Source of the DNA: Candidatus Liminaster caballi
GTDB taxonomy: Bacteria; Bacteroidota; Bacteroidia; Bacteroidales; UBA3663
NCBI GenBank assembly: GCA_018065085.1
Contig: JAGHUA010000016.1
Coordinates: 34,952-98,951 of the forward strand
Direction: 5' to 3'
Length of the DNA stretch: 64,000 nucleotides
Positions 22,334 to 61,643 of the stretch are shown here, in pieces (the first letter of the stretch is position 1; each line of letters opens with the position of its first letter). The position numbers and the translations under genes are program-made. Under the pieces are notes generated by a model, which searched no databases, was not told the DNA's origin, and worked only from the letters and a program-made list of their open reading frames with translations.

Positions 22334-22350
22334 TTAAAATAATAACTAGA

Positions 22351-23751: not shown

Positions 23752-23857
23752 AAATCGTTAGTCCTGTTTATATTTGATGAGTTTATCTCTTACTAAAGAG
23801 ATTGTGGTATTCAGATGATAATAATTAAAAACCATAAACTAATCTAAACAAACGAAG

Positions 23858-24274
23858 ATGATAATTAAAAAATATAATGAATTGCTTCAAAACGAAACCT
23901 CTGAGAAAGAAGCATATTGCTACTGTTTGAGAGATCTTATAATTATTGATCAAGAAAGAATAAAATGTAATGGGTTGTCAATTGATAGTGTGAGTTTATG
24001 GTTTAATGAAGACAAGCAACTTGTCTTTAATCTTTCTGTAACCTTTTTCCCATTAGATATAGAGAAATCAGATCTATCATATAGACGCGTTGGGTCGATT
24101 CATATAGCTTTTTATGACAACAGTAACATTATCATACAAGAAGAAGAGATTCATTATAATACAATAGATTTACCTTGTAATGGTACAACTTCTACAGATT
24201 ATGAATCACATCCATTTAAATTTGATCAGCCTCTCGACAATATAGAAAAGATAATGATTACTACGAATTTATGA
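23858..24274 (+). CDS. hypothetical small cytoplasmic protein (island gene 5)
   Basis: The 138-aa ORF is AT-rich and no motif was recognised. Confidence 0.45.
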   Translation: MIIKKYNELLQNETSEKEAYCYCLRDLIIIDQERIKCNGLSIDSVSLWFNEDKQLVFNLSVTFFPLDIEKSDLSYRRVGSIHIAFYDNSNIIIQEEEIHYNTIDLPCNGTTSTDYESHPFKFDQPLDNIEKIMITTNL

Positions 24275-24383
24275 CTTGGTATACATAAAGATCAAATATA
24301 ACGAATATTCGTCTTTTAACACGTGACTAGAGCCATTTTATAGTCATCGGAAATCACAGGAACTTGTATCACACTAGCGACTT

Positions 24384-25778: not shown

Positions 25779-25792
25779 AAAATGAATGTAGC

Positions 25793-26095
25793 ATGAGCAT
25801 CTTTGACAAAATATCCTCACTGATCACAGGATCAAAACCAGAGAAGAGGGAGCCTGAAAAGGTTTCCTCTTCCACTGATGAAACCCCTATTGTGGTGGTC
25901 GAGAATCCTACTCAGATCAAAGGGCCTAAACCAAAGATGGTTATCGTTGTGACTCCTGTCATCAACAAGCCGACAAAGCTGCACGGAGCTGCTCCTAAGA
26001 GTCGGGAAGTCCAAATGAAACTTTCTCCAGCACTTCCTAACTCTTGGGAAGTCCAAATGAAAGTTTCGTCAGCATTTCCAGGTTTTTGTAAATAA
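25793..26095 (+). CDS. doubtful ORF reading from unique sequence into array 2
   Basis: The 100-aa ORF has its last about 35 aa (PKSREVQMKLSPALP..) encoded by type B repeat units. The frame and strand differ from those of the 19383 ORF. Confidence 0.2.
   Translation: MSIFDKISSLITGSKPEKREPEKVSSSTDETPIVVVENPTQIKGPKPKMVIVVTPVINKPTKLHGAAPKSREVQMKLSPALPNSWEVQMKVSSAFPGFCK
25991..26081. repeat. array 2: about 2 type B units, same orientation as array 1
   Basis: The sequence is gctcctaagagtcgggaagtccaaatgaaactttctccagcacttcctaactcttgggaagtccaaatgaaagtttcgtcagcatttccagg. Confidence 0.85.
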
Positions 26096-26196
26096 AAAAT
26101 GCATGTCGAAAGGCTCAAATTGACGGTAAATATGTTAAATTTGCAGATAATTCTTTGATTTACTAATAAAAATAGCTGTACTTTGAAGAAAAACTA

Positions 26197-26204
26197 TATC
26201 TTTG
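26197..26204 (+). promoter_or_regulatory. -7 box TATCTTTG
   Basis: The sequence is ctatatctttgcagcg, about 210 nt upstream of the antitoxin-like ORF. Confidence 0.4.
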
Positions 26205-26410
26205 CAGCGAGAAGATTAGACAAAAACTCGCAAAATTGTTCGACGTGTACATTTGAACACGGATTGAACGGATCGAACTGATTAGAACAGATTTATAACG
26301 TCGCAGACATCCGTTAAATCCGTTAAATCTGCGTTCTTTGGGCCAGAGTGGATATCTAATCGTACAGGTCGAAATTGTTTAGTAACACCTTAAAAAATAG
26401 AATAGCAACT

Positions 26411-26668
26411 ATGTGCACATTGAATATGACATTCGAAATACCAGAGTCACGCGCCATAGATATTGAGGCTCTGAAGCAGAATATACAGGCCTACGTAAAT
26501 CTTGTTGTGGCCTACCCGACAATACTGAAAAAAGGGCAAACTGGGGCACAAGATCTAACAGTAGAGACAGTAGCAATGATTGAGCAATCTCGAAGAGAGT
26601 ACAAAGAGGGAAAAGTATTCTCATTTAACTCTTCGGCAGATGCCCAAAAGTGGCTTGAATCATTATGA
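26411..26668 (+). CDS. putative type II antitoxin (small, partner of the RelE-like remnant)
   Basis: The small ORF has its stop overlapping the next ATG (ATGATG at 26665). The C-terminal part MIEQSRREYKEGKVFSFNSSADAQKWLESL resembles antitoxin tails. The start is uncertain (26411 or 26426). Confidence 0.4.
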   Translation: MCTLNMTFEIPESRAIDIEALKQNIQAYVNLVVAYPTILKKGQTGAQDLTVETVAMIEQSRREYKEGKVFSFNSSADAQKWLESL

Positions 26669-26874
26669 TGTACAAAGTCGAATTTGCTGAGGGTTTAGAA
26701 AAGGTTTTGAAAAATTATATGAAGAAAGACCCACCCGAAGGTGAGCTTCTGCGAGTTTTCACGGTGCAAAATTATCATATTTTTACATTTCTTCCAAATT
26801 TTTTGTCTTTTTTTTGCTTTTTGTCAATAAAAAACGGCTGCATTTGCACAATGCAGCCGTTTTATATGCAATAA
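26665..26874 (+). pseudogene. truncated RelE/ParE-family toxin remnant
   Basis: The first about 23 aa (MYKVEFAEGLEKVLKNYMKKDP) look like a RelE/YoeB-type N-terminus. The rest is low-complexity read-through into the terminator. Confidence 0.35.
26835..26866. terminator. bidirectional intrinsic terminator
   Basis: cggctgca (26835-26842) pairs with tgcagccg (26852-26859). It is flanked by aaaaaa upstream and ttttat downstream. Confidence 0.6.
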
Positions 26875-28394: not shown

Positions 28395-30293
28395 TTACTC
28401 CCTCTCCAAATACGTATATCCGTACAATCCGTTTCTGTAATTGGTAAGGAATTCTTTTCCCTCTTCGAGCGTGATAGTGCCCTTCTTGACGGCCTTGGTG
28501 ACCCATGCTTCGAGGGTGCGAACCATCTTCTTGGTGTCGTATTCCACCCATCGCAGGACATCCTGAACGGTTTCGCCATCGATGGTCTGGTCGATGCTGT
28601 AGCCCTGCTTATCGACAGAGATATGTACGGCATTGACATCGCCAAAGAGATTGTGGAGGTCGCCGAGAATCTCCTGATATGCGCCGATGAGGAACACGCC
28701 GAGATAGTATTTGTCGTCCTTCTTGAGCGAGTGGATCGGCATGGCATTGACAATCTGACCGTCGGCAATATAGCTGACCACCTTGCCGTCGGAGTCGCAG
28801 GTCATGTCCTGGAGTGTGGCATTGCGGTCGGGACGTTCGTCGAGGCGCTGGATTGGCATGATAGGGAAGATCTGATCGATGGACCACATGTCAGGGAGCG
28901 ACTGGAAGAGCGAGAAATTGCAGTAATACTTGTCGGCCAGCAGTTTGCCAATCTTATGCAACTCCTCAGGCACGCGCTTCATGCCCTTGACCAGAGCGTT
29001 GATCTCGCGGGTGACACTCCAATAGAGTTTCTCGATCTGGGCGCGTGTGCGGAGGTCGATCATGCCGTGGCTGAAAAGCTGCAGCACCTCGTCGCGAATC
29101 TGCTGGGCATCGTGCCAAGACTCAAGAGCAGAGCGCTGGGTAAGGTTATCCCAGATTTCATACAGTTCCTTAACAAGTTCGTGATCGTCAGGACCTACAA
29201 CCCATTCCTCAGGCATCTCAGGGAGTGTGGCAGTCTCAAGCACCTCCATGACGAGCACAGAGTGATGTGCCGAGAGCGAACGGCCTGATTCGGTGATGAC
29301 GTTAGGATGCGGCAGATCGTTCTTGTCGGCTGCCTCCATGAGCTGATAGAGGATGTCGTTGACATACTCCTGGATAGAGTAGTTGACGCTCGATTCGCTC
29401 GTGGCTGAACGTGTGCCGTCATAGTCAACGCCAAGTCCGCCGCCGGCATCGACAAACTGGACAGGGAATCCCATCTTATGGAGCTGGACATAGAACTGCG
29501 AAGCCTCACGGATGGCAGTCTTGACGTGTCGGATATTGGTGACCTGGCTGCCGATATGGAAGTGGATGAGCTTGAGACAATCCTGCAGGTCGTGGTTCTC
29601 AAGATATTCGAGGGCTTCGAGCAGTTCGGACGAGGTAAGACCGAACTTTGAGGCATCGCCGCCTGACTGTTCCCACTTGCCGCTGCCGCTCGACGCCAGC
29701 TTGATGCGGATGCCGATGTTCGGCTTGACATTCAGACGCTTGGCAATCTTCGAGATGATCTCCAGTTCGTTGAGTTTCTCGGCAACGATATAGATGCGCT
29801 TGCCCATCTTCTGGGCGAGGAGAGCCAGCTCGATGTAGGAATCGTCCTTATAACCGTTACAGATGATGATGCTGTCGTAATCGGTGCATACGGCAATCAC
29901 GGCATGGAGTTCTGGCTTTGAACCAGCCTCAAGACCGAGGTTGAACTTACGGCCGTGGCTGACCATCTCCTCAACGACAGGCTGCATCTGGTTGACCTTG
30001 ATAGGATAGACCGTATAGCAATCGCCTTTGAAGTCATATTCCTCGGCAGCCTTCTTGAAACACTGTGACATACGTTCAATGCGGTTGTCGAGGATGTCTG
30101 GAAAACGCAAAAGGACCGGCGCTGAGATGTCTCTCAATGCCAGTTCGTCCATTACATCACGCAGGTCAACTGCAACTCCGTCTTTCTTAGGTGTCACCAC
30201 TACGTGACCCTTCTCGTTGATGTCAAAATAAGAGACACCCCATCCATGAATATTGTAAAGCTCCGCAGAGTCTTCAATATGCCACTTCTTCAT
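28395..30293 (-). CDS. speA: biosynthetic arginine decarboxylase
   Basis: The length is 632 aa. The N-terminus MKKWHIEDSAELYNIHGWG..YF.IN..G and the PLP-fold motifs (YPIKVN; GGGLGVDYDG) are typical of SpeA. Confidence 0.9.
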   Translation of the reverse strand: MKKWHIEDSAELYNIHGWGVSYFDINEKGHVVVTPKKDGVAVDLRDVMDELALRDISAPVLLRFPDILDNRIERMSQCFKKAAEEYDFKGDCYTVYPIKVNQMQPVVEEMVSHGRKFNLGLEAGSKPELHAVIAVCTDYDSIIICNGYKDDSYIELALLAQKMGKRIYIVAEKLNELEIISKIAKRLNVKPNIGIRIKLASSGSGKWEQSGGDASKFGLTSSELLEALEYLENHDLQDCLKLIHFHIGSQVTNIRHVKTAIREASQFYVQLHKMGFPVQFVDAGGGLGVDYDGTRSATSESSVNYSIQEYVNDILYQLMEAADKNDLPHPNVITESGRSLSAHHSVLVMEVLETATLPEMPEEWVVGPDDHELVKELYEIWDNLTQRSALESWHDAQQIRDEVLQLFSHGMIDLRTRAQIEKLYWSVTREINALVKGMKRVPEELHKIGKLLADKYYCNFSLFQSLPDMWSIDQIFPIMPIQRLDERPDRNATLQDMTCDSDGKVVSYIADGQIVNAMPIHSLKKDDKYYLGVFLIGAYQEILGDLHNLFGDVNAVHISVDKQGYSIDQTIDGETVQDVLRWVEYDTKKMVRTLEAWVTKAVKKGTITLEEGKEFLTNYRNGLYGYTYLERE

Positions 30294-33750: not shown

Positions 33751-33836
33751 AATTGGCCTAATAAGTCCAATTGGCCTAATAAGTCCAATTAGCCTAATAA
33801 GCCCAATTAGCCTAATAAGCCCAATTGACCCAATTT
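33751..33836. repeat. 18-bp tandem repeat aattRgcctaataagYcc x about 4.7
   Basis: Read directly, in the spacer between convergent genes. Confidence 0.9.
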
Positions 33837-36571: not shown

Positions 36572-37714
36572 TTATGCTGGATATTGCATGGTGATGCAAT
36601 GGAGTGAACCATGCTGTCTGACAAGAACCTGACAGTCAATGCCTACAATCTCACGGTCAGGGAATGCGTCTTGCAATGCCTCCATCGCCTGTCTGTCCTT
36701 GGCTGGTTGTCCATAGGTCGGCATGAGCACCGCACCATTGACGATAAGGAAATTGGCGTATGTGGCTGGCAGTCGCTGTTCGCGTTCTTCCTCAACGAAA
36801 TAGGCAAAGTTTCCTTCGATGACAGGGTCGGGCAGAGGCACGGGAATCAAGCGGAATGGACGTCCGTCGATGGTGCGAAGCGCCATTAATTCGCGTTCCA
36901 TGGCCGATAGCGTCCCGAAATGCTCGTCTTCCGGATCTGTGCACTGCACATAGACAATGGTGTCATTCGGACAGAGACGTGCCACCGTGTCAATGTGTCC
37001 GTCAGTGTCATCTCCGTCGAGCCAGCTGTTGTCGAGCCATAGGATATGCTTGGCATTGAGCGTACGTCTGAGCATTTCCTCTGCCTCTGCCTTAGTCTCG
37101 TAATAGTTGCGGTTTGGAGCCATCAGGCAGCTGGTTGTGGTGAGTAATGTGCCGCATCCATCGCTCTCCACACTTCCGCCTTCGAGCACGATGCGACGGT
37201 TGTCGGCATAGCTTACCTCGCCTTTCAGATTCTGGCTAAGCCACTCGAATGTGTGTTCGTTGATACGGTTGTCAAAGTTCGATGCAAACTTCTGTCCCCA
37301 TCCGTTGAAGCAGAAATCTGAAAGGATTTTACCTCCTTTATCTCCCTTATCTCCCTTATCTTCTTTATCTCCCTTATCTCCCTTATCTTCTTTATCCTCT
37401 ATACCTTCCATTCCACTCTCTCCCACAAGGGTCAGGAACGCATGATCGCGCGCCCAAGTGTCGTTGGTTGGCACTTCAAGGATGTGGATGCGATCCATCA
37501 TAACGCCAGGAGTGTCATTAAGAATCTCACGGACCGATTCCGGTTCTGGTGTAACGATGATGAGATCCTCGCGCAAAGACACTTCACGAGCCACATTACG
37601 ATAACACTCCACTGCCGATTGGAGATATGGATTCCAGTCGGTGTCGGCATGAGGCCAGGCAATCTGAACGAAGCTCTGAGGCTCCCACTCGGCAGGCAGG
37701 CGTTTAGTGTACAT
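36572..37714 (-). CDS. aguA: agmatine deiminase family protein carrying an about 33-aa low-complexity insertion
   Basis: The N-terminus is LPAEWEPQSFVQIAWPH, with WARD, DGHIDT and the C-terminal GSLHCITMQ catalytic Cys context. The insertion reads ..GIEDKEDKGDKGDKEDKGDKGDKGGK.. Confidence 0.8.
   Translation of the reverse strand: MYTKRLPAEWEPQSFVQIAWPHADTDWNPYLQSAVECYRNVAREVSLREDLIIVTPEPESVREILNDTPGVMMDRIHILEVPTNDTWARDHAFLTLVGESGMEGIEDKEDKGDKGDKEDKGDKGDKGGKILSDFCFNGWGQKFASNFDNRINEHTFEWLSQNLKGEVSYADNRRIVLEGGSVESDGCGTLLTTTSCLMAPNRNYYETKAEAEEMLRRTLNAKHILWLDNSWLDGDDTDGHIDTVARLCPNDTIVYVQCTDPEDEHFGTLSAMERELMALRTIDGRPFRLIPVPLPDPVIEGNFAYFVEEEREQRLPATYANFLIVNGAVLMPTYGQPAKDRQAMEALQDAFPDREIVGIDCQVLVRQHGSLHCITMQYPA
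37337..37399. repeat. in-frame 9-bp x 7 (27-bp x 2.3) tandem repeat inside aguA
   Basis: The + strand reads tttatctcc cttatctcc cttatcttc and so on. The + strand has no G from 37326 to 37428. Confidence 0.9.
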
Positions 37715-44707: not shown

Positions 44708-47542
44708 TTATTCTGATTGTTCAATCTCGGCGTCCAATGCGTTTGCCCATTCAAAATAATCTTCGAACGTCTTGCCGCCGAGCAGGACGCGGAAGTTCGG
44801 CTCGCTGATGTCAATCTGTACTATGCCATCGGGCAGGGTCAGAGAGGTCGAGATATCCATTCTGTCGTGATAGTCGATCAGTTCGTCAAGGTTGGCGAAT
44901 CCGCTTATGACGAGCACCGAGATGCCGCCGCCTGTGTCAATGATTTCGAGGTCGAAGTCCTTGATCAGATAGTTCTCGAAGTTGAACTTGGCAATCTCAA
45001 ACAGCAGATCGTTCTGGCTGAGGCTGTCGGTCTTATATGCCAGCAGGAGCAGGTGTGGAGCCAGATCGTCGTCGATAAACGTCTGCGTGCTGTCGATGGC
45101 AGTGCTGTCGTTTGCCTGACGCAAAGTGGCTGCCCACATCATACCTCTGGTCAATCCGCCTGACTGCACCTGACGTCCTTCGTGAATACCCTTGATCATA
45201 AGGCTCGACAAAGGCGAGACGTCGCTCTGTGGGTAGGTGGCGGTAAGCTGTTCAAGGGCCGAACGGAAGTCGTCGATCTTGCCTTCCTGCACGTAGCTGA
45301 GAGCGTGGAGGAAGAGGAACTTTGGCATCAGTTTGCTCAATGGCCACTTGTCATGCACATAGAAATAAGTATCATGCACGTCCTCGGCATTGCCTTCCAG
45401 ATAGGCGTCATAGGTCTTGATGTAGAGCGAATCCTGGCCTTCGTCCATCGCACGAAGATTGTCGATGTAGTTAGGATCTGCCACGGCAATACCGTAAGCC
45501 GACTCAGGGAATGCCTGGATAAGTTTCTGTCTGTAAGCCTCGGCATTGGCTGCGTCGCCCATACGCAAATACATAAGATAGATAGCGTAGTATGACTCCA
45601 GACGGTATGCCGATTCAGGATAGCGCTTCTCCATATTCTCGAACGTCTTGATGGCCAATGGCAGGTTCTCAAGTTTCTCGTTGATGATCTTGCCCTCATT
45701 ATACAGACCTTCCTCGATGAGCTGGTTGGCGTTTGCCACTTCCTCGTCGGTGCGAGGAATCTGTGCCAGGTAGTATGCACGCTTATGCGGATCGGAAACC
45801 TCGTCCTGATTGAATGCCGGAGCAGCCACCGAATCCGCAGGCAATTCCTCGCCGTCGGTTTCCTCCGTTTCGCTATCGTCATTTTCGTCCGAATCAGTTT
45901 CCTCGCTGCTGTCCTCGAATGTCACGGTTTCCGTCTTGTTCTTTCGGCGCCAGTTGTCCTCAGGTTTACGCGCACCCCATTTGCGTTGGAATTCGCTCTT
46001 ACCTGCGCTGATCGATGATGGATTGTAGAAATACCACGACTTATCCTGCTGACCCACTGTCGGCTGTGTGTTGGTCGGTTGAGCCAGAGGGTCAACATTC
46101 TCGCTCTTGCGCTGTTCGTATGCAGCCAGAGCCTCTGCCTCGGCTTCTTCCTTCTCCTTTTTTATGAGTTCGTCGATGAGCTTGTCGATTACCTTGTTCA
46201 GTTCGTCCTCGCTCAACGAGGCAAGGTGCAGCAGCGAATCCTGCAACTGCACGGTTTCGGCGTGTGTCTGCAGTTCGTCGAGGGTGGCCGACAGTTTCTG
46301 TATCTCCTCATAGCCTTTGTATTCCTTGTTGATGATGCCCATAACCACCGAGTAGGCTTTCTGTGCACGTACATAATCGGCGCGATCGAACGTCAGACGT
46401 CCCAGTTTGAGGGCAGCCATTGCCTTGTCCATGCCGTTGCGCTTGCTCTTTTCGAGAGCCGTTTCGTAGCGTTCGATGGCCAGCATCGTATCCTTGCGCA
46501 TCAGCGAGACATCGGCCATGGCGGCATAGATCTGATCGAGATAATCCTCGTTTCGTGCCTGACGGCGCAGACGGTTCAGTTCTCGCTCCATGCGATCGGC
46601 TTGTTTGTTCGATGCGTGTGACAGCGTACGGATTCTTGCAATTCGTGCGTTGAACTGTGTCTTGTAATCTTTTGCTTCGCCGATAATGCGGCTATAGCTC
46701 TTATATGCATCGTCGAAACGTCCGTTCTCCTCATTGATCTGGGCGGCAAAGAAATCCGTACGCACACGCTGTGTCTTTGTCTGGAATCCGCGCTTGGCTT
46801 TCTGCAGGTAGGGCAGAGCCTCGGTTTTCCTGTCTGACTGTATGAGCAGTATTTCTGCCTGAGCCAAACTGAACAGACGCTGCAGGCGCAGAGGCATCTG
46901 CTGATAGTATTCCACCTTGCTGAGTTCTTCCTGCGAGTTGTATTTCTTGGCTTCGATAACAAGGGCAAGCTCCGTCTCTGCCTCAAACTGTTCGCCACGG
47001 ATGGCATGGATGCGTGCTGTCCAGATGTGGCTCTCGTCCTGAGCGAGTTTCTTCCACCAGAAGTGGCGTGCCACGTATCCGAATGTAGCCTGGGCAGCAT
47101 CAAAGTCGCCGTTGTAGAACTGGGCGCGACCAGACAGCAGCCATGCGTTGTGCATGTATGGATTATATTCGCCTCGGGTCAGCCACAGCTTGTATTCAGG
47201 CGTATTCTTAGCCTTGCGTCTTGGTTTTTTGCTGATGCTCTTCGTCTGGACGCACTTCTTACACTTGTCGATGGCGCCGTCGAACTTAGTCTCGGTTTTA
47301 TGCTGTTCGTAGAGTGTGTAGATGGGGTGTAGATTGAGTTGCTGAGAATAGTCATCGTTGCCGGTGTCCTCCTCCATGTTTTTCAGAGCCACGCGATAAG
47401 CCTCATTGCCATTGAAGTGGATGTTATACTTCGTGGTAAGTCCTGCCATGCCGCGCGTCAGCTTCGTGTTCGACTTGCACGCCACCAGCAGCACTGCCAT
47501 CAGCAGCGCCACGCAAATCCGGTATGCAAGTCTCTTTTTCAT
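44708..47542 (-). CDS. TPR-repeat lipoprotein, PorW/SprE-like type IX secretion component
   Basis: The lipobox is LLVAC. Just after it comes TTKYNIHFNGNEAY, matching the SprE/PorW pattern (..YN.LYNGN.A). Long TPR regions and an acidic linker follow. Confidence 0.55.
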   Translation of the reverse strand: MKKRLAYRICVALLMAVLLVACKSNTKLTRGMAGLTTKYNIHFNGNEAYRVALKNMEEDTGNDDYSQQLNLHPIYTLYEQHKTETKFDGAIDKCKKCVQTKSISKKPRRKAKNTPEYKLWLTRGEYNPYMHNAWLLSGRAQFYNGDFDAAQATFGYVARHFWWKKLAQDESHIWTARIHAIRGEQFEAETELALVIEAKKYNSQEELSKVEYYQQMPLRLQRLFSLAQAEILLIQSDRKTEALPYLQKAKRGFQTKTQRVRTDFFAAQINEENGRFDDAYKSYSRIIGEAKDYKTQFNARIARIRTLSHASNKQADRMERELNRLRRQARNEDYLDQIYAAMADVSLMRKDTMLAIERYETALEKSKRNGMDKAMAALKLGRLTFDRADYVRAQKAYSVVMGIINKEYKGYEEIQKLSATLDELQTHAETVQLQDSLLHLASLSEDELNKVIDKLIDELIKKEKEEAEAEALAAYEQRKSENVDPLAQPTNTQPTVGQQDKSWYFYNPSSISAGKSEFQRKWGARKPEDNWRRKNKTETVTFEDSSEETDSDENDDSETEETDGEELPADSVAAPAFNQDEVSDPHKRAYYLAQIPRTDEEVANANQLIEEGLYNEGKIINEKLENLPLAIKTFENMEKRYPESAYRLESYYAIYLMYLRMGDAANAEAYRQKLIQAFPESAYGIAVADPNYIDNLRAMDEGQDSLYIKTYDAYLEGNAEDVHDTYFYVHDKWPLSKLMPKFLFLHALSYVQEGKIDDFRSALEQLTATYPQSDVSPLSSLMIKGIHEGRQVQSGGLTRGMMWAATLRQANDSTAIDSTQTFIDDDLAPHLLLLAYKTDSLSQNDLLFEIAKFNFENYLIKDFDLEIIDTGGGISVLVISGFANLDELIDYHDRMDISTSLTLPDGIVQIDISEPNFRVLLGGKTFEDYFEWANALDAEIEQSE

Positions 47543-47670
47543 TTCTTTACTTTCTTTAGCCTTTTAACCTTTTAACCTTTTAACCTTTTAACCCTTTAAC
47601 CTTTTAACCCTTTAACCTCTTCACTCTCTTTACTCTCTTTACTCTTTACTCCTTACCCTCTCATTACTAT
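47543..47670. repeat. short 'word' repeats (cttttaac / cctttaac x about 7, then ctctttact variants)
   Basis: Read directly. A single G occurs on the + strand between 47531 and 47670. The last 10 codons of the upstream 165-aa ORF lie inside it. Confidence 0.9.
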
Positions 47671-48136
47671 GATCAGTTCCGTCCTTAGCCACGCTTTGGA
47701 AACGTCTTTCCCTGACCACCATCAGCACCTCGTCCTTCAGGTCATCAGGCAGTTCGATGCCTCGAAGTTGCAGCGAACGGCACCATCCAGCCACTTCCAC
47801 CTCCTTCAGCTCGTAGAAAATCTGGGCGAACTCCTCCGTCTGATCGGCAGTGTATTCGTCTGATGACACGCCCTTGAATTGGTCAAGTTCCTCATCGTCA
47901 TAGTAGATGATTTCCTTCGATACGGCAGCCAGCAGAGAGTCGCGTTCGCATGTGGCATGCTGTCCGCAACACTCGTCAGGCACTTCCTTGGTAATCTCGA
48001 ACGGCGAAGTCTCGTCTTCCTTTGCCGTACCTTCCTCCACACGTTTCTGGTAGCGTTTATGGCCGATGAGCGAAAGGCCGAAAGTCATCAGGGCAAGGCC
48101 GCCGATGAGCACGAGCAGGTATAAAACGATAATCAT
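47639..48136 (-). CDS. hypothetical membrane-anchored protein
   Basis: It has an N-terminal TM helix, an acidic middle and a CCGQHATCE motif. Its start overlaps the aroA stop by 4 nt. Confidence 0.5.
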   Translation of the reverse strand: MIIVLYLLVLIGGLALMTFGLSLIGHKRYQKRVEEGTAKEDETSPFEITKEVPDECCGQHATCERDSLLAAVSKEIIYYDDEELDQFKGVSSDEYTADQTEEFAQIFYELKEVEVAGWCRSLQLRGIELPDDLKDEVLMVVRERRFQSVAKDGTDHSNERVRSKE

Positions 48137-49575
48137 AATATCTTAAATATGAGCCAAAGGATTAGTACAGCCACTGCAATCAGCAGGGTGTTGAGCACCC
48201 ATTTCGAATGAGTGTGGATGCGTTGCTGGCGACGCATGGCGTTTTCGAACTTCTCAGCGAGTTCCGTGCGGCTGAGCGTCTGCGGTTCTACGTCGATGCC
48301 AGCCGACTGTAGGTCGTTCCAGAACGAAGGATAGGATTTGCTTACCACCTCGGGGTCGCAGATATAAGTGTCGCCCGACGTGATGGCGAGAGGTGCGAAA
48401 GCCATGGCCATGCGGTGGTCGTGGTAGGTATCGACAAACGGTGGCAGGTCATCGGTCGTCAGTTCGTCGCCGTCCCACGTCATCAGGTCATCGCCCACAG
48501 CCTTCACGTCGAACCCGAATTTTGCGAGTTCGTTCTGCAATGCGGCGATACGGTCGGTTTCCTTGATGCGCAGGGTGTGAAGTCCGTTGATGGCGAAGTG
48601 TACGCCAAGGCCGCAGCATGTCGAGATCATTGTCTGTGCCAGATCCGGCTGATTGCACATGTTCCATTCCACCTTTACAGGCATAGTGAAATCGTCTGCC
48701 GGTTTGATGACTGCGCCTTCGGCTGTGAATTCCGTCACCACGCCCAACTCATTGAAATAGTCAGCCGCATGGCTGTCGCCCTGGAGGCTGTGCTGCTTCA
48801 AACCCATGAGCAGGAACTCCGTCTTGATGCCCGCCGATTTGGCCAACGCGCAGATTTGATACCAGTAGCTCGACGCACTCCAGTCACTCTCCACGGCATA
48901 GGTCATCGATGTGTAGCGCTGCGGTTTGACGCTGACGGTGCTGTCCGATGTCCATTCTGACTCCACGCCGAACTCGCGCATCATCTCAAGGGTCATCTCG
49001 ATATACGGACGGCTCGTCACCTGGTTGGTCAGTGTCAGTTCAAGGCCGTTGGCAAGCGTCGGCGCTATCATCAGAAGTGCTGAGATATACTGGCTCGACG
49101 TACTGCCGTCGATGCTCAGTTTGCCGCCGCTGAGTTTCCTGCCGCGAATGTTGAGCGGAGGAAATCCCTCTTTTTCGGCATAATCGATGTCGGCGCCAAG
49201 TTCGCGCAGGGCATCGACCAGCAGGGCGATAGGACGGTCTTTCATTCTTGCCGAACCGGTCATCTGCACACAGATTCCTTCGTTCGCAGCAAAGAATGCC
49301 GTCAGAAAGCGCATCGATGTGCCGGCTGCTCCGATGTCGATTGTCAGGAACTGCGGGCTCTCATTGGCCGATGTGCAGGTAGGAGCGAGGCGCACGGTGT
49401 CGAATGCCTGAAGCATCACTTTCGTGTCGTCGCAGTCGCTCAGATGCGAAAGCTGACAGTCGCCCTCGCACAGGGCTTTCATGATTAGCGCCCTGTTTGA
49501 GAGAGATTTCGATGCAGGCAGGTCGATGACTGTACGATCCCTGCGGATGTTGTCAGCTGATATTCTGTTGATCAT
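48133..49575 (-). CDS. aroA: 3-phosphoshikimate 1-carboxyvinyltransferase with a C-terminal TM extension
   Basis: LPASKSLSNRALI, the GTSMRFL-type motif AAGTSMRFL, and DHRMAMAFA are present. An extra about 60 aa ends in the hydrophobic helix VLNTLLIAVAVLILWLIF. Confidence 0.85.
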   Translation of the reverse strand: MINRISADNIRRDRTVIDLPASKSLSNRALIMKALCEGDCQLSHLSDCDDTKVMLQAFDTVRLAPTCTSANESPQFLTIDIGAAGTSMRFLTAFFAANEGICVQMTGSARMKDRPIALLVDALRELGADIDYAEKEGFPPLNIRGRKLSGGKLSIDGSTSSQYISALLMIAPTLANGLELTLTNQVTSRPYIEMTLEMMREFGVESEWTSDSTVSVKPQRYTSMTYAVESDWSASSYWYQICALAKSAGIKTEFLLMGLKQHSLQGDSHAADYFNELGVVTEFTAEGAVIKPADDFTMPVKVEWNMCNQPDLAQTMISTCCGLGVHFAINGLHTLRIKETDRIAALQNELAKFGFDVKAVGDDLMTWDGDELTTDDLPPFVDTYHDHRMAMAFAPLAITSGDTYICDPEVVSKSYPSFWNDLQSAGIDVEPQTLSRTELAEKFENAMRRQQRIHTHSKWVLNTLLIAVAVLILWLIFKIL

Positions 49576-49585: not shown

Positions 49586-50827
49586 TCAGCAGTTGGCAGC
49601 GAGCTGGCAGATCTTCACTATGGTCATCATGGCCTTCTCCATGCTCTGGATTGGCACATACTCAAATCGTCCGTGCATGTTCATGCCGCCGGCGAAGATG
49701 TTCGGACATGGCAGGCCCTTGAATGAGAGCTGTGCGCCGTCTGTGCCGCCACGGATAGGCTGAACCTTGACCGGACATCCTGCTTCGAGGATAGCCTGCT
49801 TTGCCAGGTCGATGATGCCTGGCAGACCCTTCTTCTGGTTCTCGGCATCGGCTTCCTGAACCTTCTCCAGCATGTTGTAGTACTGATCCTTCAGCACCAC
49901 CTCGCATCTGCCTGGATACTGCTTGTTGATATTCTCTGCCACGTTGAGGATGTTCTGCTTGCGAGCCTCAAACAGTTCGCGGTTATGGTCGCGGATGATG
50001 TACGAGAGCTGAGCTTCCTCCACGGTGCCGTTCATGCCTATCAGGTGATAGAATCCCTCATAGCCCTCGGTGTGTTCAGGACGTTCCTCCTCTGGCAGCT
50101 GCTCGGCAAACTCCATTGCCAGGAGTGCGGCATTGACCATCTTGTCCTTTGCTGTGCCTGGGTGTACGTTGGTGCCGTGGAATGTGATCTTGGCGCTGGC
50201 AGCGTTGAAGTTCTCAAATTCAAGTTCGCCAACCTCGCCGCCGTCCATTGTGTAAGCCCAGTCGCAGCCGAACAGCTCCACGTTGAAATGGTGTGCGCCC
50301 ATGCCAATCTCCTCGTCAGGGTTGAATGCGATGCGGATCTTGCCGTGTTCGATCTCTGGATGTTCGCGCAGGTAGAGCATTGCCGAGATAATCTCAGCGA
50401 TGCCGGCCTTGTCGTCGGCGCCGAGCAGGGTAGTGCCGTCGGTCACGATCAGGTCTTCACCCACGTGGTTGAGCAGCTCAGGGAAGTAGCTTGTCTGCAT
50501 CACGGTGTCGGCGTTGAGCTGGATGTCCTTGCCGTCGTAGTTCTCCACGATGCGAGGGTTTACGTTCTTGCCCGATGCGTCGGGAGCGGTGTCCATGTGT
50601 GCGATGAATCCGATCACAGGCACCTGCTTGTCAGTGTTGGCAGGCAGAGTGGCATAGAGGTATCCGAGTTCGTCGAGCACAACGTCCTCAAAGTTCAGGT
50701 CCTTGAGTTCCTGTTCGAGCATCTTGGCAAAAGCCATCTGGGTTGGTGTACTTGGAGTCACGCCAGTCTCTTCGTTGCTGGTGGTCTCAACCTTCACATA
50801 GCGGAGGAAGCGTTCGGTAAGTGTCAT
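49586..50827 (-). CDS. pepT: peptidase T (tripeptide aminopeptidase)
   Basis: The N-terminus is [24 protein letters not shown] and the M20 motifs are present. The length is 413 aa. Confidence 0.9.
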
Positions 50828-51077: not shown

Positions 51078-52763
51078 ATGTACACAAACGAATCATTATA
51101 CATAGCCCATTCGGCTAATGGTCCTATCTCGCTGGTAGGCAAGATGTGCAATCGTCACGGTCTTATCGCAGGTGCCACCGGCACGGGCAAGACAGTCACT
51201 CTCCAGGTCATTGCCGAGACGTTCAGTCAGGCAGGCGTGCCTTGTTTCATGGCCGATATGAAGGGCGATCTCTCGGGCATCTCGCAGGTCGGCAAGACCT
51301 CATCGTTCATCGAGAAGCGATGCAGGGAATTTGGCATTGAGAATCCCGAGTATCAGGCTTGTCCGGTGCGTTTCTTCGATGTCTATGGCGAACAGGGTCA
51401 CAGCCTTCGCACCACGGTTTCTGCCATGGGTCCGCAACTCCTGTCGCGTCTTATGGGACTCAATGAAACTCAGGCGGGTGTGTTGAATATTGTGTTCCGC
51501 ATTGCCGACGATGTCGAACTCCTGCTCATCGACCTCAAGGACCTTCGTTCGATGCTCGATTTCGTGGGTTCCAACGCCTCGAAGTTCACCACCAAATACG
51601 GTAATATCTCTGCTGCCAGCGTCGGTGCCATTCAGCGTTCCATCCTTGCCATCGAGAGCGAGGGCGGCGACAAGTTCTTTGGCGAACCGGCTTTCGATGT
51701 TGAGGATCTTCTTGACACCGAGAACGGTCGAGGCATCATGAACGTCCTTGCTGCCGATCGCCTTATGCTCAATCCTAAGCTCTACAGCACGTTCCTCCTT
51801 TGGCTCATGACCGAGCTTTATGCGCGTCTGCCGGAGGTCGGTGACCTTCCGTTGCCAAAGCTCATCTTCTTCTTCGATGAGGCACACATGCTCTTTGACG
51901 GCACATCGAAGGCTCTTGTCGATAAGCTCGAACAGGTCATCCGTCTTATCCGTTCAAAGGGCGTCGGCATCTATTTCATCACACAGTCGCCAACCGATAT
52001 TCCTGAGAATATCCTCGGTCAGCTCGGCAATCGCGTGCAGCATGCACTTCGTGCCTATACTCCTAAGGATCAGAAGGCTGTGCGTACCGCAGCTCAGACG
52101 TTCCGTGCTAATCCTGAGTTCAAGACAGAGGACGCTATCATGGAACTTGAAACGGGCGAAGCTCTTGTCTCGGTGCTCGACGCAAAGGGTGCGCCAACCG
52201 TTGTCGAACGTGCTCGCATTCTCTTCCCGTTGAGTCAGATCGGAGCCATCACCGAGGGGCAGCGTCTTGACATCCGCAATGCTGCGCCTGCCAGGATCAA
52301 GGCTTACGATTCGTTCTTCGACCGCGAATCTGCCTACGAGGTTCTTTCTGCCACCAAGGCCGAAGCCGATGCAGAAGCTGCACGTGTCGAGGAGGAAAAG
52401 GAACTTGCCCGTCAGGCAAAAGAGGAAGAGAAGGCTCGTCGTGAAGCCGAACGTGAAGCTGCGCGTCAGGCAAAAGAGGAAGAACGCGAACGCAAGGCTC
52501 AGGAGAAGGAGTCCAAGAAGTCTTCATCATTCGCCCGCACCATCTTTGGCACGCTTGCCGCTGCCGTTGCCACAAGTGTTGCCCGCAGCGTCGGCAATGA
52601 GGTAGCCAAGAAGATTACCGGCAGTTCCTCTTCGTCATCATCTTCATCCAAGAAATCCACAAAGAGCACTTCCGGCAAGATCATCGAATCTGCCACCAAG
52701 TCAGCTACCACCACGGCTACACGTACTCTCACCAAGGAAATCCTGAAGAGCATCTTCAAATAA
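51078..52763 (+). CDS. HerA-like / DUF853 (YjgR-type) P-loop ATPase with a low-complexity C-terminal tail
   Basis: The Walker A motif is GATGTGKTVTLQ and the Walker B motif is LIFFFDEAH. The tail is rich in E/K/R and then S/T. Confidence 0.8.
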   Translation: MYTNESLYIAHSANGPISLVGKMCNRHGLIAGATGTGKTVTLQVIAETFSQAGVPCFMADMKGDLSGISQVGKTSSFIEKRCREFGIENPEYQACPVRFFDVYGEQGHSLRTTVSAMGPQLLSRLMGLNETQAGVLNIVFRIADDVELLLIDLKDLRSMLDFVGSNASKFTTKYGNISAASVGAIQRSILAIESEGGDKFFGEPAFDVEDLLDTENGRGIMNVLAADRLMLNPKLYSTFLLWLMTELYARLPEVGDLPLPKLIFFFDEAHMLFDGTSKALVDKLEQVIRLIRSKGVGIYFITQSPTDIPENILGQLGNRVQHALRAYTPKDQKAVRTAAQTFRANPEFKTEDAIMELETGEALVSVLDAKGAPTVVERARILFPLSQIGAITEGQRLDIRNAAPARIKAYDSFFDRESAYEVLSATKAEADAEAARVEEEKELARQAKEEEKARREAEREAARQAKEEERERKAQEKESKKSSSFARTIFGTLAAAVATSVARSVGNEVAKKITGSSSSSSSSSKKSTKSTSGKIIESATKSATTTATRTLTKEILKSIFK

Positions 52764-52766
52764 TGT

Positions 52767-53302
52767 CCCAACTCTTAGGAAGTGCCGCCGAAAGTTTCAT
52801 TTGGATTTCCCAACTCTTAGGAAGTGCCGCCGAAACTTTCATTTGGAGTTCCCAACTCTTAGGAAATGCTGCCGAAACTTTCATTTGGACTTCCCAACTC
52901 TTAGGAAATGCTGCCGAAAGTTTCATTTGGGCTTCCCAACTCTTAGGAAATGCCGCCGAAAGTTTGTTTTGGATTTCCAGCTTTCTGGAAATGCTTAGAA
53001 CAAAGTTCTGGCGACTTCCCAAGTCTTGGCAAATGCTCGGAACAATGTGCTGGCGATTTCCCAAGTCTTGGCAAATCCTCGGAACAATGTTCTGGCGACT
53101 TCTAGCTTTCTGGAAATGCTGAGAACAATGTTCTGGCGACTTCCCAAGTCTTGGCAAATCCTCGGAACAATGTGCTGAGGACTTCCAGCTTTCTGGAAAT
53201 GCTGAGAACAATGTTCTAGCGATTTCCTAACTCTTGGGAAATGCTGAGAACAATGTTCTGGCGACTTCCCAACTCTTGGGAAATGCTTAGAACCGATTTT
53301 TT
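52767..53302. repeat. array 3: inverted counterpart of array 1 (5 reverse-complement type B units, then about 7.5 reverse-complement type A units)
   Basis: It starts 4 nt after the DUF853 stop. It ends in gaaccgatttttt, the reverse complement of the aaaaatcggttc that opens array 1. Confidence 0.95.
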
Positions 53303-53771
53303 ATCTTCTGAAGTTTTGGAAAGAGGTTTTGCTTGTTATTTAATTTGACTCAATCAAATTTTATACCTTTGAATAGCAAACTAATGTTTAACTCATCGAT
53401 ATTAATAGAGGTTGACATTTATTTTTCTCTAAATAGTTGCAATTATCAAAATAATTGATTAAGTTTGCCCCGAAAATCCGATGTTCGTGTACATGCCAAC
53501 AAATACACGTTCGATGATGATAAGATTGAGAAATAGATTGCAATAACACGAATCACTAACAATAAAACACTAATAATTAAGAAACAGAAATGAAATAATT
53601 GAACGGTGAGTTGGGCGAATAGAGTAACCCACCACACTTCCCTTACGAAGAGTAGAACGTCTCGCTCTGCCACCTCTTGCAATGTGTGGCGAAAGAGACA
53701 AAACATTAACTCAGAAGGAAGTGACCACCCATTCGATACTACATATATATAACTGAGCTTTCGCTCTTGTT

Positions 53772-53945
53772 CTCTTATCCGAAAACGGCCAATTTGAAGA
53801 TGCACGAGAATAAGTCAGCGATAGGTTCACGTTCCGTTTGGGGGCGTGGCCTTTCGATTCGTACTTATTTGTGCTTAAGGTGCTTGGCCGTACCTCGGAT
53901 AAGAATAAGTAATCGGACGAAGGTCATGTCCCTTCTCTTATTCTT
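53772..53945 (+). promoter_or_regulatory. structured leader with mutually exclusive helices upstream of a secreted-protein gene
   Basis: Helix A pairs 53774-53782 with 53895-53903 (9 bp) and 53786-53792 with 53884-53890 (7 bp). Helix B pairs aagaataag at 53901-53909 with cttattctt at 53937-53945. The two helices share 53901-53903. Confidence 0.35.
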
Positions 53946-53955
53946 AGATAATAAA

Positions 53956-54702
53956 ATGAAAAAGTTTTTCAGCCTATTGACGGCAATTAGTTTCTTTGCA
54001 ATCTGTTCTGAGGCACAGGTTGTAGATAACAATCCAATGCGAAAGAATCGTGGTGAATTTTGTTTTCAGCAAGTTCCTGCAGAATTTACGACAGACGGGC
54101 AATTACAGGTGTGGATGGTAAACTTGTTCGAAGAAAACAGAAATTCTTCATATCCAGACAGAGGAGTAGCATCTTTAATTGATGAGGATTTAAACGAAAA
54201 GAAACAGGTTGAAATTAATGGATATCCGTTGACATTTAAGGATCTCAATCAACCTTATGCCTCTGATTTCGGATTCTATCTTAGTCAGACTTTGTTTAAT
54301 TCGGATAGCAAGTATGAAATTATTGAAGGGGTAATGACGACTAAATCAGATGATTACTTAGAAGGTTACTTATTCTTAACAGGTTTCAAGATTGTTTCTG
54401 AGGGTACAGTTCTGCAAACAGTCAATTTTCCCAATGGTATTGAAAGCGACGGATATGGATTCTATCCAACTATTATCAAAATCGGTAGCAAGTTGTATCT
54501 TTACATTGACGGTCTAACAGACAATAATGGTAATTATTACGAACTGGTTTACAAAATCAATTCAGCTGCAAGCAACGTATCTTTGGTGCGTCAGGACTAT
54601 GTGGGTAAGACAAGAAAAATTTACAACAATGGTAGATTCCTCATTGAGAACGCAGAAGGCAAACTTTATAGAACCGATGGCGTAGAAGCCGTTAGTGAGT
54701 AA
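53956..54702 (+). CDS. hypothetical exported protein
   Basis: The start was moved to the ATG at 53956, ahead of the signal peptide MKKFFSLLTAISFFAICSEAQ. The length is 248 aa and no family was recognised. Confidence 0.6.
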   Translation: MKKFFSLLTAISFFAICSEAQVVDNNPMRKNRGEFCFQQVPAEFTTDGQLQVWMVNLFEENRNSSYPDRGVASLIDEDLNEKKQVEINGYPLTFKDLNQPYASDFGFYLSQTLFNSDSKYEIIEGVMTTKSDDYLEGYLFLTGFKIVSEGTVLQTVNFPNGIESDGYGFYPTIIKIGSKLYLYIDGLTDNNGNYYELVYKINSAASNVSLVRQDYVGKTRKIYNNGRFLIENAEGKLYRTDGVEAVSE

Positions 54703-54722
54703 TCTCGCATGATTAAAATAAA

Positions 54723-54758
54723 CTCCCACAATCCTTGTCGATTGTGGGAGTTTTTTTT
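54723..54758 (+). terminator. strong intrinsic terminator
   Basis: A 10-bp perfect stem (ctcccacaat/attgtgggag) with an 8-nt loop is followed by T8. The A-rich left flank makes it potentially bidirectional for higA. Confidence 0.75.
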
Positions 54759-54812
54759 ACGATCGATTATATCAGTTTCTTTCCTCGTTGAGATTGTGGA
54801 ATGTAAAATGTT

Positions 54813-55178
54813 TTACACGCCAAGCACGATACGTGCATCCACGTTCATCTTGCGGCTGATTTCTCTGGCGACCTGCAAAGTGGGTTCGCATCGACCCGTA
54901 AAGATGTCGCTTATGCGAGATGGGCTTACCCCAAGGAGTTCTGAGAGCTTGGCCTGGTTGAGTCCCATCTCATACATACGAAGTTTCATCACCTCGATGA
55001 GCGTTGGCTGTTCAATTGGATAATGTTCATCCTCGTATTCAGAAACCATATCGGTAAGAAGGTTAAGTTCGACGGCATTCTTATCGGTCGCTGGAGTGTC
55101 ATCTGTAACGAGAGGAAGTAGTTCCTCGATACGAGCCATAGTGGCGTCGTATGCTGCTTTGGTAGTTATCTTTGCCAT
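54813..55178 (-). CDS. higA: HigA-family antitoxin (XRE-type HTH)
   Basis: The C-terminal HTH is LNQAKLSELLGVSPSRISDIFTGR. It lies immediately downstream of higB. Confidence 0.75.
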   Translation of the reverse strand: MAKITTKAAYDATMARIEELLPLVTDDTPATDKNAVELNLLTDMVSEYEDEHYPIEQPTLIEVMKLRMYEMGLNQAKLSELLGVSPSRISDIFTGRCEPTLQVAREISRKMNVDARIVLGV

Positions 55179-55193
55179 AGTGTGTACTTTAAA

Positions 55194-55487
55194 TTATATA
55201 TTCTTGGCATCAATCTTGTCATACTCAGCATGTGTGCCGATAAAGCGGATCAGTACGGTGCTGATGGTGAATTTGATGACCACGATGAGTCTATAGTTGT
55301 TGCCTCGTATATTGAATACGTAGTGCTGATTTCCAATGGCATCAACGCTGTTGAATGTCTGTCGTATGTCATCAAAACAAGTCCATTGTGCATTCTTGGT
55401 TTTGGTGTACCATTCTTCCAGGGCTACTCGAGAATCTGCGTGTGCGGTATAATACTCAATAATTCTTGAACGGGCGATTATTCGCAT
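55194..55487 (-). CDS. higB: HigB-family type II toxin (mRNA interferase)
   Basis: The 97-aa product reads MRIIARSRIIEYY......ALEEWY......A.W....D......SVD..GN..YVFNI.GN.YRLI. The toxin-first gene order is typical of higBA. Confidence 0.8.
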   Translation of the reverse strand: MRIIARSRIIEYYTAHADSRVALEEWYTKTKNAQWTCFDDIRQTFNSVDAIGNQHYVFNIRGNNYRLIVVIKFTISTVLIRFIGTHAEYDKIDAKNI

Positions 55488-55509
55488 AGATGAGATGTAT
55501 TAGGAGATG

Positions 55510-55517
55510 CAAAGATA
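55510..55517 (-). promoter_or_regulatory. -7 box (reverse complement TATCTTTG) for higBA
   Basis: The minus strand reads ccctatctttgcatc, 23 nt upstream of the higB ATG. Confidence 0.5.
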
Positions 55518-55812
55518 GGGTTTATAATTTAAAAAACAAAATTTTCTTCTGAAAAATGGAATTATTATTGTCAAATTATAGGAGTTTGCTAAAATTCGTA
55601 CCAAAAAAGCGCGCAAACTTGACAAAAGTCGTACCAAAAAATAATTCGACCTGTAGGGATGAAGATGCCATCGGCAACAGATATTGGAAGCCAGCCATGA
55701 TGGTTGACTACCAGTATTTAATCCCTAACGGGATATAGCTGCCGCAATCAAAATTTTATCCGTATAGGCCGAAAAAACTCGAGTTGTACGGTTAAATTCG
55801 AAAAAGATATTT

Positions 55813-55868
55813 ATGATAAAATTTATGGTAAATTCATGAACTGAAATTTATGTTGCGCCGCAGGCAAT
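55813..55868. repeat. second copy of the atgRtaaaWtt phased repeats plus ttgcgccgcaggcaat
   Basis: 55844-55868 is identical to 17532-17556 (25 nt). 11-12-bp phased units precede it. Confidence 0.8.
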
Positions 55869-55918
55869 ATTTTTATTTCGCATAATTAGTTCTTTATGAT
55901 CATAAAAGATTGCACAGA

Positions 55919-59549: not shown

Positions 59550-59612
59550 AGTGTGTAAAGGGTAAGGGAGTAAAGAGTAATGGGTAAAGAGTAATGAGGG
59601 TGAAGAGTAATG
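59550..59612. repeat. C-free 'word' repeats (gtaaagRg / gtaatgRg variants)
   Basis: The + strand has no C from 59540 to 59618. It uses the same word family as the reverse complement of 47600-47670. Confidence 0.85.
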
Positions 59613-61171: not shown

Positions 61172-61549
61172 TTATACCTCGGCAACAACCTCAATCTCGA
61201 TGAGGCCATTCTTTGGAAGAGTCTTTACGGCAACAGCCGAACGAGCCGGGAACGGAGTAACGAAGTACTGTGAATAGAGTTCGTTGAGAGTGGCGAAGTC
61301 AGCCATGTCGGCCATAAAGACTGAGACCTTGACAACCTTTTCGAACGACGATCCGGCGGCAGCAAGGATTGCACCTACATTCTTAAGGCTCTGTTCGGCC
61401 TGGCTGCGGAAGTCCTCGCCTGCGAAATTGCCTGTTGTTGGATCAATGCCGAGCTGACCGCTTGCATAGAGCATACCGTTGATGACTACTGCCTGACTGT
61501 AAGCACCGATGGCAGCTGGTGCGTTTGGGGTAGAGATAATGGATTTCAT
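61172..61549 (-). CDS. ridA: RidA family reactive-intermediate deaminase
   Basis: The 125-aa product contains APAAIGAYSQAV..NGMLYASGQLG.DP.TG and ends with EIEVVA. Confidence 0.85.
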   Translation of the reverse strand: MKSIISTPNAPAAIGAYSQAVVINGMLYASGQLGIDPTTGNFAGEDFRSQAEQSLKNVGAILAAAGSSFEKVVKVSVFMADMADFATLNELYSQYFVTPFPARSAVAVKTLPKNGLIEIEVVAEV

Positions 61550-61643
61550 TGTTTTATTGTTTTATTGTTTTATTGTTTTATTGTTTTTTAATTTGTAAAT
61601 TTGTCCTTCGTTTTTCGTTCTTCGTATTTTCGTCTTTCGTCAT
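61550..61643. repeat. short 'word' repeats (tgttttat x 4.5, then ttcgtNttt variants)
   Basis: Read directly. It fills the whole spacer between the 176-aa ORF stop and the ridA start. The + strand is C-free from 61550 to 61604. Confidence 0.85.

Follow-up and report, generated by a model that had tools for sequence, protein, structure and literature searches.

What is the tandem array that begins almost at the stop codon of a HerA-like gene in Candidatus Liminaster caballi, and why does a second array at the other end of a 33-kb segment read as its mirror image? The DNA analysed here (the window, 64 kb in length) belongs to a metagenome-assembled genome (MAG) of this organism recovered from horse faeces (PMC8957277). 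The array in question, array 3, occupies 52766-53302, and its inverted counterpart, array 1, occupies 18929-19598. As argued below, array 3 is probably one copy of a species-specific, dispersed and non-coding composite tandem repeat family of Candidatus Liminaster caballi, built of units that each carry two palindromes (dyads).

Array 3 is composed of two blocks, both on the + strand. The B block (52766-52970) consists of five 42-bp B units (GGACTTCCCAACTCTTAGGAAATGCYGCCGAAASTTTCATTT), the first of which is short by its first 5 nt. The A block (52971-53293) reads A2 A1 A1 A2 A1 A2 A1 followed by a 32-nt partial A1, or 7.8 units; the A2 units (41 bp) carry TTCCAGCTTTCTGGAA, the A1 units (42 bp) carry TTCCCAAGTCTTGGCAA, and (A/G)GAACAATGTTCT is common to both. 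This splitting into five B units, seven full A units and one partial A1 agrees with the five B and about 7.5 A units given in the initial annotation. Tandem Repeats Finder reported the same DNA as 52766-52978 (period 42, 5.1 copies, 92% matches) and 52989-53293 (period 42, 7.3 copies). The stop codon of the HerA-like gene, which encodes a HerA_C (DUF853) ATPase, occupies 52761-52763, and the first base of the array is 52766; array 3 thus lies directly 3' of that gene, as had been described, albeit starting 2 nt, not 4 nt, after the stop.

Array 1 shows the same build on the - strand. Its terminal motif (AAAAATCGGTTC on the + strand) and an A block of 12 A units span 18929-19423, with A2 units carrying TTCCAGGTTTCTGGAA and A1 units carrying TTCCCAACTCTTAGGAA, and four 42-bp B units follow at 19424-19598 (18937-19598 by Tandem Repeats Finder). 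The reverse complement of array 1 therefore reads four B units and then 12 A units. When this reverse complement was aligned with array 3 by MAFFT, the two proved to be collinear, B units before A units, with a column identity of 81%, which confirmed that array 3 is the inverted counterpart of array 1 and bore out the visual estimate of roughly four fifths identity. The sequence that ends array 3 (GAACCGATTTTTT, 53290-53302, + strand) is likewise the reverse complement of the motif that opens array 1, as had been noted. GGAAC-CGATTTTT closes both arrays and their homology ends exactly there; on the B side it ends at the array edge, and the DNA flanking the two arrays shows no homology to each other. 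A degenerate unit pattern of 35 nt had 38 matches in the window, all within arrays 1 and 3, against 0.04 expected from shuffled sequences. Units are 88-93% identical inside one array and 85-86% identical across the arrays, and the longest exact tract common to both is 30 nt.

Three kinds of unit make up the arrays: the B unit (42 bp, GGACTTCCCAACTCTTAGGAAATGCYGSMGAAASTTTCATTT), the A1 unit (42 bp, CGACTTCCCAACTCTTAGGAAATGCTGGGAACAATGTTCTGG) and the A2 unit (41 bp, CGACTTCCAGSTTTCTGGAAATGCTSGGAACAATGTTCTGR). Two dyads occur in every unit, centred at unit columns 13 and 34, and the spacing between dyad centres is 21 bp + 21 bp, or 20.5 bp in A2 units. As 21 bp corresponds to about two helical turns, all dyads lie on one face of the duplex, an unusually regular alternation of palindromes. 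Dyad a reads GAACA-W-TGTTC in A units and GAAA-S-TTTC in B units, and is extended to AGAACAATGTTCT in several units of array 3. For dyad b, the B unit and the A1 unit have TTCCCAAS-T-CTTRGSAA, whereas the A2 unit has TTCCAG-N4-CTGGAA. The unit kinds are set apart by symmetric changes in both arms (GAAA/TTTC versus GAACA/TGTTC, and TTCCAG/CTGGAA versus TTCCCAAS/CTTRGSAA), and the symmetry itself is what is kept. The A2 arms TTCCAG/CTGGAA, described initially as perfect, are so in 6/10 A2 units but not in the remainder. The loop between them does differ as stated, being AAAC in 7/7 A2 units of array 1 and AAAG in 3/3 of array 3. The reported flip of the GAAAnTTTC centre between c and g was found in array 3 (G, C, C, G, G) and in a shorter third copy, array 2, but not in array 1, where the centre is the same in all four B units. 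The units abut each other, and a test for CRISPR organisation found no unique spacers between the repeats.

Substitutions between copies fall mainly outside the arms of these dyads. Across arrays, the mean pairwise difference was 4.6% in the arms of dyad a (GAACA/TGTTC and GAAA/TTTC) and 9.4% in those of dyad b, against 24.7% in the spacers; the values for the centre base of dyad a and for the centre or loop of dyad b were 21.7% and 16.7%, respectively. The spacers are 3-5 times more divergent between copies than the dyad arms, and the ranking within arrays is the same, with arms below spacers. Permutation of columns, arms versus spacers, yielded p values of 0.0002 (dyad a) and 0.003 (dyad b), which are optimistic because the columns were pooled over three related unit classes, the copies of which share ancestry. 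The idea that the dyads are conserved, for which a lower substitution rate in the arms than elsewhere had been set as the test, is supported by these figures, albeit self-correction of palindromes could be a non-selective source of the same pattern.

Arrays 1 and 3 had been taken as a dedicated pair, but this genome contains five or more loci of the family, three in the window and two on other contigs. With a profile of the unit, nhmmer detected array 2 (25990-26085, - strand; about 2.3 B-type units), oriented like array 1. Array 2 forms the 3' end of an open reading frame (ORF) at 25793-26095, at the right edge of an island of low guanine-cytosine (GC) content, and lies on the strand opposite to that ORF. 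The only full unit of array 2 shows a flipped dyad b core, CCCAAGAGTTAGG in place of CCCAACTCTTAGG. The two loci outside the window emerged from a phmmer search with the + strand ORF of array 1 against 1.84 billion representative proteins, in which two matches were real, P0129 and P0130, both from the same MAG; the other 12 matches were unrelated repeat proteins. P0129 (KBT20_01110; 138-kb contig) is a series of A-type units in translation, and P0130 (KBT20_10825; 25-kb contig) is a series of at least five B-type units in translation (MKVSAAFPKTWEVQ...), in which the alternation of V and L (MKVS vs MKLS) represents the G/C flip at the centre of GAAAnTTTC. Two variants seen in array 3, the AAAG loop and the GCACA arm, recur in P0129, and the array that P0129 reads through is arranged otherwise, both starting and finishing with a B-like unit. 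The NCBI proteins of this MAG also include the HerA protein and the array 1 ORF. With at least five loci in one genome, an inverted pair is expected by chance.

As far as the data reach, the family is specific to this species. A protein-word search with the array 3 ORF among 5.8 billion proteins retrieved no array outside the MAG, and BLAST against plasmids and phages and one scan of viral contigs retrieved none either. A scan of metagenome DNA gave no array and three chance single matches, all in an RTX-like gene; the matches in contigs L101 and L102 were rejected, as they lie inside an RTX-like coding repeat (GNAGNNVL). Relatives with a HerA protein 77-82% identical had neither an array after the HerA gene nor synteny around it, and a 561-residue gene of contig L110 turned out not to be HerA. 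In the closest relative by HerA (82% identity), contig L099 carries at 7034-7309 an intergenic array of 41 bp x 6.7, rich in GTCAC/GTGAC dyads, upstream of an AraC-type gene; this array is unrelated to ours in sequence and dyad layout and was dismissed as a conserved counterpart. Contig L107 of Logan (run SRR10505694) carries the flank of array 1 at positions 1-45 and ends inside the last unit of that array. The run therefore contains the organism, and the contig illustrates how such arrays break short-read and unitig assemblies.

Do the arrays act as DNA, or through a product? They could be, or have been, coding sequences for 14-residue repeats of secreted proteins, partly decayed by frameshifts. 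Three of the six frames of the 42-bp B units are open, and gene callers read through these units: KBT20_03170 (19383-19754, - strand), annotated in array 1, reads through the B block and starts with the signal-peptide-like MRKILIAASLLLFSSVYAQ, ORF 25793-26095 ends in B units, and an ATG overlaps the HerA stop codon (TAATG). Palindromic coding repeats such as PARCELs also exist (PMC2996958). Nevertheless, the A2 units of 41 bp shift the frame and rule out a single frame through the A block, in which stop codons occur in every frame, and the frames and strands in use differ from locus to locus. In the B unit, first, second and third codon positions contain 4, 6 and 5 variable columns, respectively, which shows neither codon periodicity nor an excess at the third position. 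ORFs through both arrays matched no Pfam family, DUF285 included, and the sole matches among the 5.8 billion and 1.84 billion proteins searched come from this MAG. The arrays are unlikely to be coding, and we regard their descent from decayed protein repeats as quite improbable. At least four hypothetical proteins, KBT20_03170, KBT20_01110, KBT20_10825 and the product of ORF 25793-26095, are probably read-throughs of the repeat, wholly or partly. A role as RNA, in which the arrays would be structured 3' untranslated regions that stabilise or terminate upstream transcripts, as proposed for REP elements, would suit the start of array 3 just past the HerA stop codon with no terminator between, as well as the co-orientation of both long arrays between the 3' end of one gene and the next gene. 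Whole arrays fold far better than shuffled sequences, and the A2 hairpin (-7.2 kcal/mol) is a plausible stem. However, it is the only convincing one, and folding is equally strong on both strands (z -7.2 and -8.4). Single B units and A1 dyads of the array 1 type fold no better than shuffles, and the 1-nt centres of the best-conserved dyads leave no room for a hairpin loop. Moreover, array 2 lies on the strand opposite to the ORF that it ends, and Rfam gave no match at gathering thresholds, only far sub-threshold, hairpin-like ones at permissive thresholds. An RNA role is thus without support and appears unlikely to account for the arrays.

If the arrays act as DNA, their inverted arrangement might matter in itself. 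The initial annotation proposed that the pair brackets core genes and could mediate inversion of the segment between them. The named genes are all located there, namely speA (28395-30293), aguA (36572-37714), aroA (48133-49575), the gene for an M20 peptidase, annotated as pepT (49586-50827), that for a 944-residue tetratricopeptide repeat protein, described as PorW-like (44708-47542), and genes for glycoside hydrolases (GH) of families GH28, GH26 and GH9. The bracketing geometry holds, but the content is not all core, as the left 6.5 kb belongs to the low-GC island. The evidence on inversion is circumstantial, coming from one MAG, the relatives of which show no synteny. Flanking inverted repeats, as looked for in a test for invertible segments, are present. 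With gene orientation regressed out, the replication-associated GC skew is +0.081±0.014 in the flanks against +0.002±0.013 in the segment (island excluded), and at third codon positions 0.106±0.027 against 0.034±0.024. Core genes lie on the - strand in 15/20 cases within the segment and in 6/14 cases in the flanks, and in the flipped state the low-GC patch at 19.8-26.8 kb would adjoin the one at 53.3-55.9 kb. The segment may therefore have flipped in the past, and the diverged inverted homology could support a rare flip of the RecA type; judged by recombination in E. coli, an exact tract of 30 nt seems marginal for the homologous recombination required. A functional switch, that is, programmed or frequent inversion of the 33 kb that changes gene context or replication orientation, is another matter. 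The same skew, strand bias and joining of patches could be quoted in its favour, but the skew of the segment is erased, not reversed, and the patches would join on inversion by a 1 in 3 chance given that both touch arrays. No recombinase family was found among the neighbouring ORFs, the arrays are only 81% identical, and fixed private variants along the whole length of each array argue against recent exchange. In addition, the segment holds housekeeping genes and no obvious phase-variable output, so that we give such a switch very little credence. The inverted pair is still a candidate substrate, unproven, for a 33-kb inversion in a region that bears dnaA (7098-8489).

The presence of dnaA in the window also invites a comparison with centromeres. 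The arrays could be architectural elements similar to sopC or parS, with a dimeric partition or condensation protein bound to phased palindromes near dnaA and the pair delimiting a chromosomal domain. Their anatomy resembles that of sopC of plasmid F, in which a 43-bp unit containing a 16-bp inverted repeat occurs 12 times in direct orientation (PMC3177203). The phasing at 21 bp and the conserved arms agree with this view, as do tandem arrays of canonical parS with a period of 39-43 bp in the chromosomes of Bacilli and Mycoplasmatota MAGs, between gyrA and tadA-dnaX. Nevertheless, allowing up to three mismatches, chromosomal parS (TGTTNCACGTGAAACA) had one match in the window, with 3 mismatches and outside the arrays, against 2.15 expected by chance. 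No ParA or ParB (SopA or SopB) match was obtained among the tested ORFs of the window, including those flanking the arrays, which encode a GH2 enzyme, a 281-residue winged-helix-like protein, HerA_C and a secreted protein. Two other contigs also bear copies, a further copy borders the low-GC island, and the family is absent from relatives. Proximity to an origin is itself unproven; upstream of dnaA (8510-9248) there are only four sites that resemble DnaA boxes with 1 mismatch, and GC skew keeps its sign at dnaA, so that an adjacent origin is not established. A centromere-like function seems improbable on this evidence.

We therefore return to the dispersed repeat family as the preferred explanation of array 3. 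Its copies would arise, at least sometimes, by duplication of whole arrays, as arrays 1 and 3 share the build of B block, A block and GAACCGATTTTT, a view that the different arrangement of the P0129 array qualifies. The conservation of the arms, together with the lack of support for RNA, fits double-stranded palindromes, which are usual sites of dimeric DNA-binding proteins. The palindromes would owe their maintenance to recognition, in the double-stranded state, by a dimeric protein that binds or recombines DNA, with palindrome self-correction as a non-selective alternative. The arrays would gather at the 3' ends of genes and beside acquired DNA, as BIME, BOX and NIME elements do, and arrays 1 and 3 would be two copies that chance to be inverted. 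One can go further and suppose a new kind of element that moves as whole tandem arrays, or a set of dispersed sopC-like platforms, with a predicted dimeric protein on the palindromes phased at 21 bp that organises or recombines the chromosome, the 33-kb flip included; we hold this to be rather unlikely. If a binding protein exists, the arrays would offer a ready-made series of phased sites for its study.

Several observations weigh against the repeat family as we conceive it. No protein partner or transposase was identified, and the tested ORFs of the window include no Y1/RAYT protein, ParB or recombinase. The only nearby candidate for a DNA-binding protein is the 281-residue winged-helix-like protein, and no such arrays precede the genes of its homologues. 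The documented loci number only five, two of them known as translated proteins alone, and the 64-kb window contains no single copies, which are usual in families of the REP kind. Finally, the scan of the genome collection was too loose to establish the absence of the family elsewhere fully. As for the 281-residue protein, its ORF (17735-18580, - strand) lies beside array 1 and has five homologues of 38-54% identity. The N-terminal domain was predicted with confidence as winged-helix-like (best Foldseek matches SarA, MarR and BlaI, E 0.07-0.5). The DNA upstream of the ORF (18581-18936) carries its own short direct repeats, with ACACGAAT motifs common to the homologue in contig L108, and in view of these repeats and of the homologues, its candidacy as the binder of the arrays was judged unsupported.

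The surroundings of the arrays are of interest with respect to the origin of the DNA. Arrays 1 and 2, which have the same orientation, enclose the low-GC island (19800-26800; GC 0.30-0.39). This island contains ORFans and the genes for a DUF5677 protein (20677-21501) and for a GIY-YIG / phrog_20046 protein (24384-25778); no integrase and no PADLOC matches were found in it. Immediately outside array 3, at its A end, lies a second low-GC patch (53300-55900; GC 0.36-0.43). There is thus an association of the arrays with acquired DNA, and REP elements are documented targets of insertion sequences (PMC1525189). In the second patch, ORF 53767-54702 seemingly has its real start at an internal signal peptide (MKKFFSLLTAISFFAICSEAQ) and matched no family; the possibility that this ORF and ORF 17735-18580 are paralogous genes downstream of the arrays was discarded, as the two are unrelated. 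We also considered a target-site duplication for array 3, given ATCTTC at both 52752 and 53303, where ATCTTC-TGA would restore a stop codon. This was rejected: the HerA_C gene (51078-52763, + strand) ends in ...SIFK* directly before the array, and 120/120 HerA homologues end in ...(I/L/M/V)(F/L)(K/G), with a terminal K in nearly all, so that the AAA TAA before array 3 is native.

Other short tandem repeats are scattered over the window. Arrays of an 8-nt unit, (TTTTAACC)n, occur at 7015-7100 (10.8 copies, just 3' of dnaA) and at 47555-47618 (8 copies, between two genes of the - strand), and a different 8-mer, TTTTATTG, is repeated 5.5 times at 61544-61587. Further examples are an 18-nt unit x 4.3 between genes at 33751-33827, a 9-nt unit x 7.6 inside the agmatine deiminase (PAD_porph) ORF at 37329-37396, and units of 14-16 nt x 3.9 at 59555-59612.

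Arrays of comparable anatomy were encountered in other genomes as a by-catch of a scan with GAACANTGTTC-N28-33-GAACANTGTTC, an unspecific pattern that itself demands the palindrome and the spacing. Canonical parS (TGTTCCACGTGAAACA) forms tandem arrays with a period of 39-43 bp and 3-7 or more copies in contigs L032 (5928-6199), L027 (1-193) and L040 (1695-1825), located between gyrA and tadA-dnaX and at contig ends, in a Bacilli MAG from rabbit gut and a Mycoplasmatota MAG. An array of 42 bp x 11-12 in Methylobacter (L072, 660-1186) has the same GAACAATGTTC core in each unit. In Aquisalimonas (L008, 6289-6589), an array of 39 bp x 8 (GGAACAGTGTTCC) lies directly upstream of a TraI_2 relaxase gene and may be related to oriT, and an Oscillospiraceae MAG (L057, 405-540) has an array of 39 bp x 3.5. 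Palindromic arrays with a period of about 40 bp thus recur in quite different functional settings, and anatomy alone does not fix function.

How, then, does the family compare with known systems? The tandem parS arrays of L032, L027 and L040 share with it the period, one strong palindrome per unit and a position directly after the 3' end of a gene (gyrA), but their units hold canonical parS, which is lacking from the arrays in the window. sopC (PMC3177203, PMC2910045) is likewise a series of about 12 tandem direct repeats of about 42-43 bp with an internal palindrome; it is, however, plasmid-borne, beside sopAB, and has one 16-bp palindrome per unit, whereas the arrays described here are chromosomal, occupy several loci, and consist of three unit kinds with two alternating palindromes per unit. 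PARCELs (PMC2996958) resemble the arrays as tandem dyad repeats with open frames on either strand, and they too occur in ORFs that bear membrane-targeting signals. They differ in being coding, with a repeat of 25 residues (75 nt) described by the DUF285 and TIGR02167 models, and the frame-breaking period of 41/42 nt together with the absence of a DUF285 match excludes our arrays from that family. The dyads do not fit the LexA-like operators of Bacteroidetes either (GGA-N5-TCC and CTAA-N5-TTAG; PMC8565304).

The closest parallels are found among mosaic intergenic repeats. REP elements and BIMEs of Enterobacteria and Pseudomonas (PMC2817692, PMC3333891, PMC3733652, PMC1525189) resemble the arrays in several ways. 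They are extragenic, often immediately downstream of a stop codon, and species-specific; their imperfect palindromes, about 35-40 bp in length, are grouped into mosaics in which linkers vary and several types of unit occur; and foreign DNA is known to insert into them, just as the arrays neighbour acquired DNA. Unlike the REPs of a BIME, which alternate in orientation, the units here are direct repeats with two dyads each; REPs exceed 100 per genome and also occur singly, whereas five loci are documented here and the 64 kb of the window contain no singletons. REPs further bear a GTAG or CGTC tag (PMC3733652), and no such tag is conserved here: among full A units, CGTC is present in 6/11 in array 1 (GTCGTCAG) and in 1/7 in array 3, and rests on column 42, the most variable one. 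No Y1_Tnp (RAYT) match was obtained when about 48 ORFs of the window were compared with Pfam. Another parallel is provided by BOX elements of Streptococcus pneumoniae and NIME/dRS3 elements of Neisseria. These are modular intergenic repeats in which a module of about 45 bp is repeated in tandem, with end modules of a different kind on either side. Such elements are dyad-rich, dispersed and confined to their species, and NIMEs serve as integration targets for mobile DNA. The arrays of Candidatus Liminaster caballi share this modular, dispersed and dyad-rich organisation, but their sequences are unrelated, their repeat number is much higher (12-16 units), and their dyads are strictly phased at 21 bp. 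With this family, interspersed mosaic repeats, which are known from Proteobacteria and Firmicutes, would gain an example from the Bacteroidales.

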